From IMG/VR virus record IMGVR_UViG_2700989507_000005: 5,726 nucleotides of DNA; one strand, written 5' to 3'. Position numbers and translations under genes: made by a program. How positions within the stretch are numbered: the stretch's first letter is position 1; each line of letters opens with the position of its first letter. Origin of the DNA: a virus (taxonomy: Duplodnaviria > Heunggongvirae > Uroviricota > Caudoviricetes). Shown in pieces: positions 1 to 5,726 of this stretch. Below the pieces are notes generated by a model. The model saw nothing but the letters and a program-made list of their open reading frames with translations, was not told the origin of the DNA and made no database searches.

Positions 1-104
1 CATGTAGATGATAATTATTATCATTTTGCGGGTCCTTTCCGGCGATCCGACAGGTTACGGGGCGGCGACCTCGCGGGTTTTCGCTATTTATGAAAATTTT
101 CCGG
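1..104 (+). other. cos: Lambda-type cos core: phage right-end terminal segment (cosQ side, 1-59) plus cosN and flanking sequence that is near-identical to lambda
   Basis: Positions 1-59 (CATGTAGATGATAAT...CCGACAGGTTACG) match my recollection of the last ~60 nt of the lambda genome with a few substitutions. Positions 60-104 (GGGCGGCGACCTCGCGGGTTTTCGCTATTTATGAAAATTTTCCGG) match the first ~45 nt of the lambda left end. Similarity to lambda stops at about 105. Confidence 0.8.
60..71 (+). other. cosN: cosN 12-nt cohesive-end sequence GGGCGGCGACCT (terminase nicking site)
   Basis: Exact match to the lambda 12-nt 5' cohesive end, in the expected context ...GTTACG|GGGCGGCGACCT|CGCGGG, and about 185 bp upstream of the small terminase gene as in lambda. 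Confidence 0.8.
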
Positions 105-108
105 GATC

Positions 109-119
109 CATGTCCGGTT
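109..119 (-). repeat. R-like element, inverted copy (CATGTCCGGTT, reverse complement of AACCGGACATG)
   Basis: Exact reverse complement of the 11-mer found at 167-177 and 197-207. Confidence 0.5.
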
Positions 120-166
120 TCTCTTCAAGTTAACTATATGAAAAATATAAAAACAGGTCTTCTGTG

Positions 167-177
167 AACCGGACATG
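167..177 (+). repeat. R-like element, direct copy AACCGGACATG
   Basis: Exact 11-mer repeat; flanked by A in the same way as the third copy (GAACCGGACATGAAC versus AAACCGGACATGACC). Confidence 0.5.
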
Positions 178-196
178 AACAAAAAACAGACATGTA

Positions 197-214
197 AACC
201 GGACATGACCGGTT
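197..214 (+). repeat. R-like element, direct copy AACCGGACATG overlapping an inverted partial copy (composite near-palindrome AACCGGACATGACCGGTT)
   Basis: AACCGGACATG at 197-207; CATGACCGGTT at 204-214 differs from the inverted copy at 109-119 by one base. Confidence 0.5.
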
Positions 215-254
215 TTGTTGTGATTGTGAGGTGAGAGTTTTTGCGAGGTGAGGA

Positions 255-764
255 GTGGCTACGCAGACTGAAGTTGCCAGGCATTTAAGTCTGACCGATC
301 GCCAGCTTCGCAGATTGCAGAAATTGCCGGGTGCCCCGATATCGAATAAGCGAGGGCAACTGGATCTGGATGCCTGGCGCGATTTTTACATATCGTATCT
401 GAGGAGAAGTAAAAACGATGTGCCTGATGGCGATAGCGAAGACGACTATGAGGAGAAATTGCTTATTGCCAGATGGGAACTGACAGCAGAACAGGCTGTT
501 ACACAGCAGTTAAAAAATGAGGTGTCAAAAGGAAAACTTATTGACACCGGGTTCTGTATTTTTGCCCTCAGTAAGCTGGCAATGGCGTTATCCAGTACGC
601 TTGATTCCATCCCTTTATCCATGCAGCGACAGTTTCCTGATTTAACACCGCGCCATCTTGACCATCTGAAAACCCTTATTGCTAAGGGGGCAAATCAGTG
701 TGCGCGGGCAGGGGATAAATTACCGGATTTACTCGATGAATATATCAGAGCAACAACTGAATAA
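255..764 (+). CDS. nu1: Terminase small subunit (Nu1-like), 169 aa; N-terminal DNA-binding domain divergent from lambda, C-terminal half lambda-like
   Basis: GTG start at 255 preceded by GGTGAGGAG (Shine-Dalgarno); an in-frame stop at 249-251 rules out an upstream start. The C-terminal half (...TGFCIFALSKLAMALSSTLDSIPLSMQRQFPDLTPRHLDHL...LPDLLDEYI) aligns with my recollection of lambda gpNu1 (...TAFCTFVLSRIAGEIASILDGLPLSVQRRFPELENRHVDFL...IPGLLSEYI). The N-terminal ~75 aa is not recognisably lambda. The 3' end overlaps the large-subunit gene as in lambda. Confidence 0.85.
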   Translation: MATQTEVARHLSLTDRQLRRLQKLPGAPISNKRGQLDLDAWRDFYISYLRRSKNDVPDGDSEDDYEEKLLIARWELTAEQAVTQQLKNEVSKGKLIDTGFCIFALSKLAMALSSTLDSIPLSMQRQFPDLTPRHLDHLKTLIAKGANQCARAGDKLPDLLDEYIRATTE

Positions 765-2664
765 TATGATGGCTGCCGTTTCGGTTGCGCTGCAGCCTCT
801 GGTCAGGGTTGTACCAATGACGGCAGTTGAATGGGCTGATCAAAATTATTATCTGCCTAAAGAATCCTCATACGGTGAGGGCGAATGGAAAACGCTGCCA
901 TTCCAGATCGCCATTATGAACTGTATGGGTAACGACCAGGTTCGCACGGTTAACCTGATTAAATCTGCCCGTGTTGGCTATACAAAGATGTTGCTGGGGG
1001 TGGTCGGGTATTTTATTGAGCATAAATCCCGAAACAGTCTGCTTTTTCAGCCCACGGATTCTGCCGCTGAAGATTTTATGAAGTCTCACGTGGAGGCGAC
1101 GATTCGGAACGTGCCATGCCTGAAAGACCTTTCCCCATGGCTGGGTCGTAAACATCGTGACAATACTCTCACGCTGAAACGCTTTTCATCGGGCGTCGGT
1201 TTCTGGTGCCTGGGCGGCGCTGCCGCCAAAAACTACCGTGAAAAATCCGTGGACGTGGTCTGCTATGACGAACTTTCCTCGTTCGAGCCGGATGTCGAAA
1301 AAGAGGGCTCGCCAACCCTGCTGGGGGATAAGCGTATTGAGGGGGCGGTGTGGCCAAAATCCATTCGCGGCTCGACGCCTAAAATCAAAGGCACCTGCCA
1401 GATCGAAAAAGCCGCTAACGAGTCGGCGCATTTTATGCGTTTTTATGTGCCCTGCCCGCACTGTGGGGAGGCGCAGTATCTGAAATTTGGCGATGAGTCC
1501 ACGCCTTTTGGGCTTAAATGGGAGAAGGACAGCCCCGAAAGTGTTTTCTACCTCTGTGAACATCATGGCTGCGTGATCCATCAGTCTGAACTGGACCAGA
1601 GCAACGGGCGGTGGATCTGTGAAAACACGGGCATGTGGACCCGTGACGGTCTGACGTTTTTCAGCGCCCGGGGTGATGAAATTCCGCCGCCGCGCTCCAT
1701 CACGTTCCATATCTGGACGGCGTACAGTCCGTTTACCACCTGGGTACAGATAGTCTATGACTGGCTGGATGCACTGAAAGATCCCAACGGCCTGAAAACC
1801 TTTGTGAACACCACGCTGGGCGAGACCTGGGAAGAAGCCGTGGGCGAAAAACTCGATCACCAGGTACTGATGGATAAGGTGGTGCATTACACGGCGGCGG
1901 TACCTGCCCGGGTGGTTTATCTGACGGCGGGCATTGACTCGCAGCGAAACCGTTTTGAGATGTATGTCTGGGGATGGGCACCGGGAGAGGAAGCTTTTCT
2001 GGTGGATAAAATCATCATTATGGGCCGTCCCGATGAGGAAGAGACGCTGTTACGTGTGGATGCGGCGATCAACAAAAAATACTGCCATGCAGACGGAACC
2101 GAAATGACCATTTCCCGTGTCTGCTGGGACACCGGGGGGATCGATGGTGAAATTGTCTATCAGAGGTCAAAAAAACACGGTGTTTTCCGGGTGCTGCCGG
2201 TAAAAGGCGCATCTGTCTATGGCAAGCCGGTGATCACCATGCCGAAAACCCGCAATCAGCGGGGCGTGTATCTGTGTGAAGTGGGGACGGACACCGCAAA
2301 AGAAATTCTCTATGCCCGTATGAAAGCCGATCCCACTCCTGCGGATGAAGCCACGTCGTATGCCATCCGTTTTCCTGATGATCCGGAGATTTTTTCGCAG
2401 ACAGAGGCGCAGCAACTGGTCGCGGAAGAGCTTGTGGAGAAGTGGGAAAAAGGAAAGATGCGTCTGCTGTGGGATAACAAAAAGCGGCGTAACGAAGCGC
2501 TGGACTGCCTGGTGTATGCCTACGCGGCATTACGTGTGTCCGTGCAACGCTGGCAGCTTGATCTGGCTGTACTGGCAAAATCCCGGGAAGAAGAGACGAC
2601 CCGGCCAACCCTGAAAGAACTGGCAGCGAAGCTGTCCGGAGGAGTGAATGGTTACAGTCGCTGA
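736..2664 (+). CDS. A: Terminase large subunit (gpA-like), 642 aa
   Basis: Start chosen at ATG 736 (MNISEQQLNN...) rather than the ORF-track start at 679, because lambda gpA begins MNISNSQVN and lambda Nu1/A overlap in the same way. Extensive near-collinear similarity to lambda gpA as I recall it (TAVEWADQNYYLPKESSYGEGEWKTLPFQIAIMN; KSARVGYTKMLLGV; GDKRIEGAVWPKSIRGSTPK; HIWTAYSPFTTWVQIV; WDTGGID; KRRNEALDCLVYAYAALR). Length 642 aa versus lambda 641 aa. Stop TGA at 2662-2664. Confidence 0.95.
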   Translation: MNISEQQLNNMMAAVSVALQPLVRVVPMTAVEWADQNYYLPKESSYGEGEWKTLPFQIAIMNCMGNDQVRTVNLIKSARVGYTKMLLGVVGYFIEHKSRNSLLFQPTDSAAEDFMKSHVEATIRNVPCLKDLSPWLGRKHRDNTLTLKRFSSGVGFWCLGGAAAKNYREKSVDVVCYDELSSFEPDVEKEGSPTLLGDKRIEGAVWPKSIRGSTPKIKGTCQIEKAANESAHFMRFYVPCPHCGEAQYLKFGDESTPFGLKWEKDSPESVFYLCEHHGCVIHQSELDQSNGRWICENTGMWTRDGLTFFSARGDEIPPPRSITFHIWTAYSPFTTWVQIVYDWLDALKDPNGLKTFVNTTLGETWEEAVGEKLDHQVLMDKVVHYTAAVPARVVYLTAGIDSQRNRFEMYVWGWAPGEEAFLVDKIIIMGRPDEEETLLRVDAAINKKYCHADGTEMTISRVCWDTGGIDGEIVYQRSKKHGVFRVLPVKGASVYGKPVITMPKTRNQRGVYLCEVGTDTAKEILYARMKADPTPADEATSYAIRFPDDPEIFSQTEAQQLVAEELVEKWEKGKMRLLWDNKKRRNEALDCLVYAYAALRVSVQRWQLDLAVLAKSREEETTRPTLKELAAKLSGGVNGYSR

Positions 2665-2854
2665 ACTACAGGCGCTACGTCAGGCGCGCCTTGATTTATT
2701 AACCGGTAAACGGGTGGTGTCTGTCCAGAAAGATGGTCGCAGAATTGAATATACGGCGGCTTCTCTGGATGAGCTTAACCGGGCGATCAATGATGCGGAG
2801 TCGGTACTGGGGACAACCCGACGTCGCCGTCGTCCGCTGGGAGTGAGGTTATGA
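2648..2854 (+). CDS. W: Head-tail joining / head completion protein (gpW-like), 68 aa
   Basis: ATG at 2648 with GGAGG upstream; 68 aa, the same length as lambda gpW; strong similarity (LTGKRVVSVQKDGRRIEYTAASL versus lambda [23 protein letters not shown]); ends in an RRRRRP basic tail. Overlaps the 3' end of A by 17 nt. Confidence 0.9.
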   Translation: MVTVAELQALRQARLDLLTGKRVVSVQKDGRRIEYTAASLDELNRAINDAESVLGTTRRRRRPLGVRL

Positions 2855-3856
2855 AACGAACGCCTGTCCTGATTGATGTGAACGGCGTTCCGCTTCGTGA
2901 GAGTCTCAGCTACAACGGGGGCGGCGCAGGATTTGGCGGGCAAATGGCGGAGTGGTTGCCACCGGCGCAGAGTGCCGATGCAGCCCTGCTGCCTGCGTTG
3001 CGTCTGGGGAATGCCCGGGCAGATGATCTGGTGCGCAATAACGGGATAGCGGCCAATGCGGTGGCACTGCATAAGGATCATATTGTCGGGCATATGTTTC
3101 TGATCAGCTACCGTCCGAACTGGCGCTGGCTGGGGATGCGGGAGACTGCGGCAAAAAGTTTTGTCGATGAGGTGGAGGCGGCCTGGTCGGAATACGCCGA
3201 AGGGATGTCTGGCGAGATCGACGTGGAAGAGAAACGCACGTTTACGGAATTTATTCGTGAAGGTGTGGGCGTTCATGCGTTTAACGGCGAAATCTTTGTG
3301 CAGCCGGTCTGGGATACGGAGAGCACGCAACTGTTTCGTACGCGTTTTAAAGCCGTGAGTCCGAAACGGGTGGACACGCCAGGACACGGTATGGGGAACC
3401 GTTTTCTGCGGGCCGGGGTGGAGGTCGATCGATATGGCCGTGCCGTTGCGTACCATATCTGTGAGGATGATTTTCCGTTCTCTGGGAGTGGACGATGGGA
3501 ACGGATCCCGCGTGAACTTCCCACCGGGCGTCCGGCCATGCTGCATATTTTCGAGCCGGTGGAGGACGGGCAGACCCGTGGGGCCAATCAGTTTTACAGC
3601 GTAATGGAACGGCTGAAGATGCTCGATTCCCTGCAGGCAACACAGCTTCAGTCGGCCATTGTGAAAGCCATGTATGCAGCGACGATTGAAAGTGAACTTG
3701 ATACCGAAAAGGCCTTTGAATATATCGCCGGCGCGCCACAGGAGCAGAAGGATAATCCGCTTATTAATATTCTGGAGAAGTTCTCCAGCTGGTATGACAC
3801 GAATAGCGTGACGCTGGGCGGAGTCAAAATTCCGCACCTTTTCCCTGGTGATAATC
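2851..3856 (+). CDS. B: Portal protein (gpB-like), N-terminal ~335 aa only; 3' part lies in the N-run
   Basis: ATG at 2851 overlaps the W stop (ATGA). Similarity to lambda gpB (GGGAGFGGQ; DAALLP; GNARADDLVRNNG; ELFVQ..WDT; FEPVEDGQTRGANQFYSVME; LQSAIVKAMYAATIESELDT; GGVKIPHLFPGD). Reading runs into N at 3857; lambda gpB is 533 aa, so about 200 aa are not visible. Confidence 0.9.
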
Positions 3857-3933
3857 NNNNNNNNNNNNNNNNNNNNNNNNNNNNNNNNNNNNNNNNNNNN
3901 NNNNNNNNNNNNNNNNNNNNNNNNNNNNNNNNN
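3857..3933. other. Run of 77 N (undetermined or masked sequence; probable assembly gap)
   Basis: Seen directly. Flanking reading frames are portal N-terminus on the left and prohead protease interior on the right, so the portal 3' end and protease 5' end are missing. Confidence 0.95.
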
Positions 3934-5088
3934 CAGGTGCGGGGCATACTGCTGGACATTGACAGTCCGGGCGGGCAGGCCGCCGGCGCGTTTGACTGCG
4001 CTGACATGATTTACCGCCTCCGTCAGCAGAAGCCGGTCTGGGCACTGTGCAATGACACGGCCTGTTCTGCAGCCATGCTGCTGGCGTCGGCCTGCTCCCG
4101 ACGGCTGGTTACCCAGACATCCCGTATCGGCTCCATTGGCGTGATGATGAGCCATGTCAGCTATGCCGGTCATCTGGCGCAGGCCGGTGTGGATATCACG
4201 CTGATTTACTCAGGGGCGCACAAGGTGGATGGCAATCAGTTTGAAGCCTTACCGGCAGAGGTTCGCCAGGACATGCAGCAGCGCATTGATGCGGCGCGCC
4301 GGATGTTTGCCGAAAAAGTGGCGATGTTTACCGGTCTGTCTGTTGATGCCGTCACGGGAACAGAGGCCGCCGTTTTTGAAGGTCAGTCCGGCATTGAGGC
4401 CGGGCTGGCGGATGAATTAGTCAATGCGTCGGATGCCATCAGTGTGATGGCCACGGCGCTGAACAGTAATGTCAGAGGAGGCACTATGCCGCAATTAACT
4501 GCAACGGAAGCCGCCGCGCAGGAGAACCAGCGAGTGATGGGGATCCTGACATGCCAGGAAGCGAAAGGACGTGAACAGCTTGCCACGATGCTGGCAGGAC
4601 AACAGGGCATGAGCGTTGCACAGGCCCGGGCGATTCTGGCCGCGGCGGCACCGCAGCAGCCGGTGGCATCCACGCAGAGTGAAGCCGATCGCATTATGGC
4701 GTGTGAAGAAGCGAACGGTCGTGAACAACTGGCGGCAACGCTGGCGGCGATGCCGGAGATGACGGTGGAAAAAGCCCGCCCGATCCTGGCTGCTTCACCG
4801 CAGGCGGATGCCGGACCCTCACTCCGTGATCAGATCATGGCACTGGATGAGGCAAAAGGGGCTGAGGCGCAGGCTGAACAACTGGCTGCCTGCCCGGGAA
4901 TGACTGTGGAGAGCGCCCGGGCTGTGCTGGCTGCGGGATCAGGTAAGGCAGAACCGGTCTCTGCATCCACAACCGCCCTGTTTGAACGCATCATGGCGAA
5001 CCATTCACCGGCAGCGGTACAGGGTGGCGTGCCACAGACGTCAGCAGACGGTGATGCGGACGTGAAAATGCTCATGGCCATGCCATGA
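3934..5088 (+). CDS. C: Prohead protease / scaffold protein (gpC-like), C-terminal 384 aa; 5' end lies in the N-run
   Basis: Strong similarity to lambda gpC from the first resolved codon (GILLDIDSPGG...GAFDCADMI...KPVWALCNDTACSAAMLLASACSRRLVTQTSRIGSIGVMM...ITLIYSGAHKVDGN...GLADELVNASDAISVM). This is an S49 / ClpP-fold serine protease signature; the CSA motif aligns with the lambda NCSAG region. Stop TGA at 5086-5088. Confidence 0.9.
   Translation, partial: QVRGILLDIDSPGGQAAGAFDCADMIYRLRQQKPVWALCNDTACSAAMLLASACSRRLVTQTSRIGSIGVMMSHVSYAGHLAQAGVDITLIYSGAHKVDGNQFEALPAEVRQDMQQRIDAARRMFAEKVAMFTGLSVDAVTGTEAAVFEGQSGIEAGLADELVNASDAISVMATALNSNVRGGTMPQLTATEAAAQENQRVMGILTCQEAKGREQLATMLAGQQGMSVAQARAILAAAAPQQPVASTQSEADRIMACEEANGREQLAATLAAMPEMTVEKARPILAASPQADAGPSLRDQIMALDEAKGAEAQAEQLAACPGMTVESARAVLAAGSGKAEPVSASTTALFERIMANHSPAAVQGGVPQTSADGDADVKMLMAMP
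4486..5088 (+). CDS. nu3: Scaffold protein (Nu3-like), nested in-frame within the 3' third of the C-like gene, 200 aa
   Basis: In-frame ATG at 4486 preceded by AGAGGAGG at 4474-4481 (a strong Shine-Dalgarno inside a coding region). Length 200 aa versus lambda Nu3 about 201 aa. Same in-frame nested arrangement and shared stop with C as in lambda (established for lambda; inferred here). Confidence 0.6.
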   Translation: MPQLTATEAAAQENQRVMGILTCQEAKGREQLATMLAGQQGMSVAQARAILAAAAPQQPVASTQSEADRIMACEEANGREQLAATLAAMPEMTVEKARPILAASPQADAGPSLRDQIMALDEAKGAEAQAEQLAACPGMTVESARAVLAAGSGKAEPVSASTTALFERIMANHSPAAVQGGVPQTSADGDADVKMLMAMP

Positions 5089-5124
5089 AGTCAGTGCTGA
5101 TCATCAACAGGAGGTTTTTACAAT

Positions 5125-5475
5125 ATGGTAACGAAAACCATCACTGAACAGCGTGCGGAAGTACGTATTTTTGCCGGTAATGATCCGGCTCATACCGCCA
5201 CAGGCAGCAGCGGGATTTCCTCGGCAACACCGGCACTGACGCCCCTGATGCTGGATGAAGCCAGCGGGAAACTGGTGGTCTGGGACGGACAGAAAGCCGG
5301 TAGTGCAGTTGGCATACTGGTACTGCCGCTTGAAGGCACAGAGACGGTACTGACCTATTACAAGTCGGGGACCTTTGCGACGGAGGCAATCCGCTGGCCT
5401 GAAAGTGTGGATGAACACAAAAAGGCAAATGCCTTTGCCGGCAGTGCCCTGAGTCACGCGGCGCTGCCGTAACAC
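5125..5475 (+). CDS. D: Head decoration protein (gpD-like), 116 aa
   Basis: ATG at 5125 with CAGGAGG at 5108-5114. Similarity to lambda gpD (DPAHTATG; TPLMLDE; KLVVWDG; AVGIL; YYKSGTF; FAGSA). Stop TAA at 5473-5475. Confidence 0.9.
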
Positions 5476-5480
5476 GTTAT

Positions 5481-5500
5481 CAGGCCACCGCGGTGGCCTG
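5481..5500. other. Perfect 20-bp palindrome CAGGCCACCGCGGTGGCCTG in the D-E intergenic spacer; potential RNA stem-loop
   Basis: Seen directly; the sequence equals its own reverse complement. Lies 6 nt after the D stop and 30 nt before the E start. No strong U-tract follows (ACTGATTTCTGAATG), so it is not an obvious intrinsic terminator. Confidence 0.4.
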
Positions 5501-5529
5501 ACTGATTTCTGAATGAAAGGAACTGATTT

Positions 5530-5726
5530 ATGGGATTGTTTACGACCCGCCAGTTACTCGGTTATACCGAACAAAAAGTGAAATTTCGTGCGCTGTTTCT
5601 GGAGCTGTTTTTCCGCCGTACGGTGAATTTCCATACCGAAGAGGTGATGCTGGACAAAATTACCGGAAAAACGCCGGTGGCGGCCTATGTCTCCCCGGTT
5701 GTTGAAGGAAAAGTGCTGCGTCATCG
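5530..5726 (+). CDS. E: Major capsid protein (gpE-like), N-terminal 65 aa; truncated by the window end
   Basis: ATG at 5530 with AAGGA about 8 nt upstream. My translation: MGLFTTRQLLGYTEQKVKFRALFLELFFRRTVNFHTEEVMLDKITGKTPVAAYVSPVVEGKVLRH, similar to the lambda gpE N-terminus (MSMYTTAQLLAANEQKFKFDPLFLRLFFRESYPFTTEKVYLSQIPGLVNMALYVSPIVSGEVIR). Not in the ORF track because no stop is reached within the window. Confidence 0.85.
   Translation, partial: MGLFTTRQLLGYTEQKVKFRALFLELFFRRTVNFHTEEVMLDKITGKTPVAAYVSPVVEGKVLRH

Follow-up and report, generated by a model that had tools for sequence, protein, structure and literature searches.

Does the portal protein encoded in this prophage locus run directly into the head protease, or are the two joined only in the database record? 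The question arises from an open reading frame for 745 amino acids (2851..5088, + strand) in the window, as we call the whole 5726-base stretch of DNA analysed here, in which a run of 77 N at 3857..3933 (no strand assigned) accounts for all ambiguous bases. The original prediction took this ORF for a bridging artefact that owes its existence to the lack of stop codons in N, and named a real in-frame fusion as the less likely alternative. The N-run and the read-through were both confirmed, in the sequence and in the translation, which reads ...HLFPGDN, then 26 X, then QVRGILLDIDSPGG.... The N-run begins at base 2 of codon 336 and finishes on a codon boundary, so that the one preceding base and the 77 N make 78 bases, or 26 codons without a stop; it is this stop-free passage alone that strings the portal frame to the protease frame in one ORF. 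An antisense ORF of 497 aa (2680..4173, − strand) likewise exists only by reading through this N-run and is an artefact of the same kind. We consider it probable, at about 0.88, that the 77 N, rather than being real bases, fill the place of about 927 bp at a gap in a scaffold assembled from short reads. The flagged feature is an assembly artefact with nothing new in it, and the 745-aa ORF is no gene in every reading except that of a real deletion.

The window is identical, base for base, to the entire 5726-bp record JZDZ01000052.1 (L011 in our locus set) of assembly GCA_000965655.1. JZDZ00000000 belongs to Escherichia coli strain St. Olav173 (PMC4432327), an O145 STEC of phylogroup E (PMC6033998). 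For this strain, TruSeq Nano libraries were sequenced as MiSeq 2x300 reads, the reads were merged with FLASH and assembled with SPAdes 3.5.0, the coverage cut-off was 20, and sequences had to be at least 500 bp long; the announcement reports 208 scaffolds on average and states that many small contigs arise from phage sequences (PMC4432327). From the identity with JZDZ01000052.1 and this description of the assembly it follows that the window comprises one complete scaffold from a draft assembly of short reads and has a scaffold end on either side. One of the k-mer sizes usually run in SPAdes is 77. A connection between this k-mer size and the number of N was considered and is not relied on here; the way SPAdes writes gaps suggests no such link.

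The left contig of the scaffold (1..3856, + strand) extends from cos to the 5′ part of the portal gene and carries, all on the + strand, genes for the terminase small subunit (255..764) and large subunit (736..2664), a gpW-like gene (2648..2854) and a fragment of a portal gene (2851..3856) of the phage 21 gene 4/lambda gpB family. The fragment consists of codons 1–335 and one further base of a 530-codon gene. The lambda-family portal profile PF05136 matched window 2851..3855 with an E-value of 1.5e-71 (241.9 bits, cut-off 32.9), and the match covers profile positions 2–291 of 354, as compared with 2–354 in an intact relative, which indicates that the portal is cut short. The gene enters the N-run after codon 335 without a stop codon of its own, and the public gene call is a partial gene of 335 aa (2851..3856) that abuts the N-run.

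The right contig (3934..5726, + strand), which is copy-specific, runs from the 3′ part of the protease gene to the start of the major capsid gene. It begins with a fragment (3934..5088, +) of an S49 protease/scaffold gene, phage 21 gene 5 or lambda gpC-like, comprising codons 118–501 of a 501-aa protein, with codon phase 0 at 3934. Here too the public gene call is a partial gene abutting the N-run (384 aa, 3934..5088). The profile PF01343 (Peptidase_S49) matched at E 3.3e-35 (121.8 bits, cut-off 24.9) over profile positions 3–151 of 154 and fragment residues 29–176; the S49 domain is complete and lies wholly to the right of the gap. The original prediction had placed a gpB-like portal up to about residue 335 on the left and the interior of a protease on the right, and the two profile matches, with the protease present from residue 118 onward, bear this out. 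A phmmer comparison aligned the protease with Bacillus subtilis SppA (3RST; E 2e-16), pairing ACSAAM with AASGGY and GAHK with GAHA, so that the candidate Ser and Lys both fall in the right flank; the aligned SppA positions are those that we take to be the catalytic Ser and the mutated Lys. Nested in frame within the protease gene is a 200-aa scaffold gene with a GGAGG ribosome-binding site (4486..5088, +), phage 21 gene 6 or Nu3-like. Window 4466..4500 is identical to phage 21 5289..5323, which is annotated as the ribosome-binding site and start of the scaffolding protein, and by transfer from phage 21 the nested start is assigned to protease residue 302, at window 4486. The head decoration gene (5125..5472, +) and the beginning of the major capsid gene (from 5530, +) complete the contig.

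As the closest complete genome, E. coli O145:H28 RM12761 (NZ_CP007133.1) allows the N-run to be measured. Window 1..3856 corresponds to positions 202..4057 of its head-module locus (L001) with 2 mismatches, and window 3934..5726 to positions 4985..6777 with 0 mismatches; the flanks are thus collinear at 99.95% (left) and 100% (right) identity, with 927 bp between them (4058..4984), 850 bp more than the placeholder. In RM12761 the module is uninterrupted and differs from the two flanks of the window at 1345 and 3853. Its portal gene (3052..4644, 530 aa), annotated as 'phage portal protein' WP_025380273.1, overlaps by 11 bp with the gene of the 501-aa S49 peptidase (4634..6139), annotated as 'S49 family peptidase' WP_001253961.1. 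The hidden bases therefore hold portal codons 336–530, which encode the C-terminal third of the portal, the 11-bp overlap and protease codons 1–117, and the protease start, at 4634 and overlapping the portal stop, lies within the hidden 927 bp and not in the window.

The same spacing was found throughout the relatives checked: wherever both flanks are present, the interval between them is 926–959 bp and almost always 927. Complete E. coli genomes have both flanks as one place in 1848 records. For 82 of these (the 25 best and 57 sampled evenly down the ranking) the span was checked, and in 81 the 1201-base query covers 2050–2052 bp, equal to an interval of 926–928 bp. The remaining one, NC_017628.1 of E. 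coli IHE3034, has a span of 2083 bp (1307647..1309729) and an interval 32 bp longer (959 bp). All 18 phage records, phage 21 included, gave a span of 2051 bp. Among 120 IMG/VR loci fetched with a left-flank motif, the interval is 927 bp in 93 and 926 bp in 2; another 7 align collinearly from end to end, their right anchor being more divergent, and 17 have no right anchor, 16 of them having less than 1 kb of sequence past the motif. One IMG/VR locus, L119 (6975..8538), matches the portal-plus-protease query up to nt 1564 and then diverges; where its portal ends, a mosaic junction leads into a different downstream gene. Of the contigs that carry the window's own terminase variant, the 7 with both flanks all have 927 bp. 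Judged from the sequences of these relatives, the true interval is about 927 bp. The idea that the N-run hides a portal 3′ end and a protease 5′ end is supported, since the relatives hold 927 bp of both; the predicted size of 660–740 bp was too small. Lambda B and C are 533 and 439 aa long, and the underestimate follows from the use of lambda gene lengths for a module of phage 21 type. As the reference, phage 21 genes 4, 5 and 6 (530-aa portal, 501-aa protease/scaffold) fit in place of lambda B, C and Nu3.

The intact copies also remove any weight from the open frame across the N-run. In RM12761 coordinates the protease frame is shifted by +1 against that of the portal ((4985 − 3052) mod 3 = 1), whereas in the window (3934 − 2851) mod 3 = 0. 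As the two genes are in different frames in intact copies and the number 77 alone sets the frame in the window, the continuity is a one-in-three accident of that number; the original prediction had likewise held it to be uninformative. Its preferred reading of the ORF as a bridge is upheld by the draft nature of the scaffold, by gene calls that stop and restart at the N-run and by the differing frames in relatives. An exact look-up of the 745-aa product, X residues included, returned no record. In a pattern search for both flanks 62–92 nt apart, no match was found in the genome or viral contig collections; a local test established that pattern N does match sequence N, so the source record and real short junctions are both absent from these two collections.

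These measurements bear directly on the possibility that one prophage copy in St. Olav173 has suffered a real deletion of about 850 bp that joins portal to protease across some 77 bases left unread, a copy that would be defective for head assembly and could encode an in-frame fusion protein. The estimate behind the number of N may be correct, other intact copies, probably present in the strain, would mask the phenotype, and damaged copies of the module do exist, such as one without tail genes (L004, below) and UTME-6, in which only the right half of the query is present. Yet a short flank interval was seen in none of the more than 200 relatives examined (genomes, phages, IMG/VR loci and terminase-variant contigs), and the gap edges share no repeat or microhomology longer than 8 nt. 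A unique junction of 77 bases would, moreover, be expected to be read through by 300-nt reads and written as bases, whereas the portal–protease junction in the window consists of N only, without real bases. The frame argument is also empty, given that nothing but the number 77 brings into line two genes that have different frames in intact copies. We thus regard such a deletion as highly improbable. A real portal–protease fusion, for which the original prediction had left room, found no support in a junction made of N with 927 bp in its place in relatives, and is very unlikely; that about 850 bp was truly lost in one co-resident prophage, with the N-terminal domain of the portal fused in frame to the S49 protease/scaffold, strikes us as barely credible. 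If it were true, the fusion protein might poison the head assembly of co-resident prophages.

Of the two bases that set the window apart from RM12761, one is shared by other public contigs and the other is not. At nt 1345, codon 204 of the large terminase subunit is GCG (Ala) in the window and TCG (Ser) in RM12761; an exact look-up of the Ala204 protein gave 15 public contigs, among them L011 and one contig of GCA_015687505.1 with two prophage copies. At base 3853, only 4 nt from the gap edge, the window has A instead of G, which gives Asp335Asn in the portal. The A allele had 0 matches in the genome, viral and metagenome collections, from which left-flank 24- and 30-mers ending in GATAATC were absent; in complete E. 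coli genomes its context is matched at best with one mismatch over 73 nt, and the G allele in the same context is found at no fewer than 120 viral loci. As it stands so close to the contig edge, the A is probably a contig-end consensus error at the margin of a repeat that the assembly did not separate; a private SNP is possible.

The break at 3856 and the restart at 3934 may be understood from the copies of the module that share a chromosome. Complete E. coli genomes with the head module have it at 2 places in the median and at 6 at most. RM12761 has 3 such places counted in the flank search, of which L001 and a second copy (L003) were compared; RM12761 modules lie at 2.44 Mb and 0.82 Mb, with terminase and portal genes identical between the two copies. 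The terminase, W and portal proteins of the second copy are the same as those of the first, whereas its protease, D and E differ. In the DNA of the two copies no difference occurs from a point upstream of the window up to and including hidden base 812; differences follow at hidden bases 813, 855, 879 and 921 and at window positions 3946, 5101, 5262, 5264, 5307, 5355 and 5403, and the next difference is at 5727. A similar picture was obtained with two copies on one contig (L004 and L005; WXYV01000002.1, GCA_015687505.1) that carry the window's terminase variant. Up to window base 0 the two are unrelated, and from 1 to 3845 they agree in every base. Their first difference, T versus C at 3846, is synonymous (Pro332), and the window has T; 19 positions differ in the hidden 927 bp, and further SNPs occur up to 5403, after which the next difference is again 5727.

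The outer ends of the scaffold fall on the points of copy divergence in relatives to the base: the left end at base 1, and the right end at 5726 with the SNP at 5727. The inner edges lie near such points, although not exactly on inter-copy SNPs in the relatives examined: the left edge, 3856, is 10 nt past the copy difference at 3846, and the right edge, 3934, is 7 nt past hidden base 921 and 12 nt before 3946. Both gap edges thus adjoin inter-copy SNPs, as expected for repeat-induced breaks, which speaks further against a real deletion. Other drafts break in the same way. An independent draft (L009) begins at window base 1, another (L014) begins 2 nt before window 3934, and four (L009, L010, L012 and L014) each stop one base before an inter-copy SNP. 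Edges at copy-divergence points are, as far as sequence comparison can tell, the pattern of repeat-induced fragmentation. The left end of the window up to the gap is of L004 type (T at 3846), and the right contig matches the type of L001, L005 and L010 at 100% identity and has 7–12 differences from the other co-resident copy. As window 1..3856 is a stretch identical between co-resident copies in relatives, it is probably a collapsed repeat, and St. Olav173 itself presumably has more than one copy.

A further scaffold of this module illustrates how little an N count may mean. The record CCVQ01000053.1 (L008; GCA_000752635.1) has runs of 10 N at 4805..4814 and 6414..6423, in the protease and D region, the flanks of which truly overlap by 141 and 198 bp. 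As flanks that overlap are written as if they were apart, N counts in scaffolds of this module do not measure distance. The two N-runs of this record are accompanied by duplicated sequence and by split gene calls for the protease and D.

Taken together, the N-run probably arose as follows. O145 and related STEC strains harbour two or more lambdoid prophages with nearly identical head modules of phage 21 type, and the assembler would have collapsed the stretch common to the copies, window 1..3856. The following ~0.9 kb, where the copies start to differ by scattered SNPs, would not have been threaded by the assembler, and read pairs would then have linked the collapsed stretch to a one-copy contig, 3934..5726. 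Such joining of a collapsed shared stretch to a copy-specific one predicts a left part of L004 type and a right part of L005/L001 type. The N number would be a distance estimate or an error mask, and in either case far too small. In a library with inserts of 350–550 bp, only the few exceptionally long fragments would be expected to yield pairs that bridge 927 bp, so that a distance computed from the mean insert size would come out short; the scaffolder appears to have underestimated the gap. That a gap was left open at all points to a longer, repeat-laden interval, since 300-nt reads at a coverage above 20 should cross 77 bp. It counts against a scaffolder gap that the inner contig edges are 7–12 nt away from inter-copy SNPs, that 927 bp exceeds the usual TruSeq Nano insert size, that the allele at base 3853 is seen nowhere else, and that REAPR, which offers another origin for N, is among the tools of the announcement (PMC4432327).

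REAPR overwrites error regions inside contigs with N (PMC3798757), and version 1.0.17 is in the tool list of the announcement (PMC4432327). The N-run could accordingly be a mask, of the same length, over a misassembled stretch of 77 bases inside a SPAdes contig. Instead of an open gap there would then have been a false or chimeric join in the original contig, and the 745-aa ORF would still be unreal. A chimeric join would be in line with the unusual A at 3853 and with the switch of copy type from the left flank to the right. The paper, though, gives REAPR for quality assessment and not for the deposition of a corrected assembly (PMC4432327). In addition, a de Bruijn skip of 850 bp needs a shared k-mer, and as no word longer than 8 nt is common to both gap edges, there is no de Bruijn path for such a jump. 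We therefore judge a REAPR mask to be unlikely.

An N-run can also be a mask over foreign DNA, as sequence databases overwrite contaminant stretches with N of equal length. Here that would mean 77 real bases of adaptor or vector gluing two unrelated contigs together, and 77 is indeed an unconventional length for a gap. The flanks, however, share the strand, follow each other as they should and come from one operon, which is rare for a random adaptor chimera and makes such a mask unlikely in the extreme; the record is, besides, described as part of a scaffold set (PMC4432327).

The underlying biology is the well-known phage 21/lambda head module of STEC prophages. Phage 21 (M81255.1, OL657228.1), in which genes 4, 5 and 6 encode the portal, the protease/scaffold and the nested scaffold, has the same order of cos, small and large terminase, W, portal, protease with nested scaffold, D and E. 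It agrees with the intact relatives in its 530- and 501-aa proteins and its 11-bp portal/protease overlap, and with the window in the ribosome-binding site and ATG of the nested scaffold, which are identical. Nucleotide identity to the window is 93.9% in the left flank and 98.2% in the right flank, and where phage 21 has 927 bp between them (positions 3830–4756), the window has 77 N instead. Phage 21 is a phage isolate, whereas the window is a prophage copy in the chromosome draft of an O145 STEC. Lambda B, C and Nu3 belong to the same PF05136 and PF01343 families and have the same nested-gene arrangement, but the lambda gene lengths do not apply to the module in the window.

In its composition of N only, its collinear flanks and its partial genes on both sides, the gap resembles the estimated-length gaps of other prophage-rich short-read scaffolds, and it does so too in having edges that adjoin differences between repeat copies, with L008 as a sister case. 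It is unlike the usual gap of this kind in that the length of its placeholder keeps one frame open and so creates a long false ORF. The case shows that ORF finders that read through N-runs produce false long "fusion" proteins, and that N counts in short-read scaffolds of prophage-rich genomes carry neither distance nor frame information. In JZDZ01000052.1 the portal and the protease are best handled as partial genes, one on each side of a gap. Nor should the scaffold be taken for one physical prophage, as several copies have probably been merged into its left part, whereas its right part belongs to one copy, and a defective prophage cannot be concluded from it.

A prophage that is truly defective was found among the relatives. 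At positions 16725..19731 of L004, the gene directly after the FI-like one encodes a short product with the C-terminal domain of J, and the Lom and fibre genes come next; the region from FII to most of J is absent, a loss that has no relation to the N-run.

At the left end of the window, positions 60..71 hold the 12-nt cohesive end GGGCGGCGACCT, the same sequence with which the phage 21 record opens (cosN, bases 1–12); 59 nt of the scaffold precede it. Among the public gene calls is a 41-aa ORF at 8..133 that crosses cos and is probably spurious. Towards the right end, a perfect 22-nt palindrome, TCAGGCCACCGCGGTGGCCTGA, occupies 5480..5501 between the decoration stop at 5472 and the capsid start at 5530. 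As no clear T-run follows its stem, this hairpin may be an RNA-stability or attenuating element rather than a full terminator. It has a 9-bp GC-rich stem with an RNA fold z-score of −2.8, and it is conserved in both RM12761 and phage 21.
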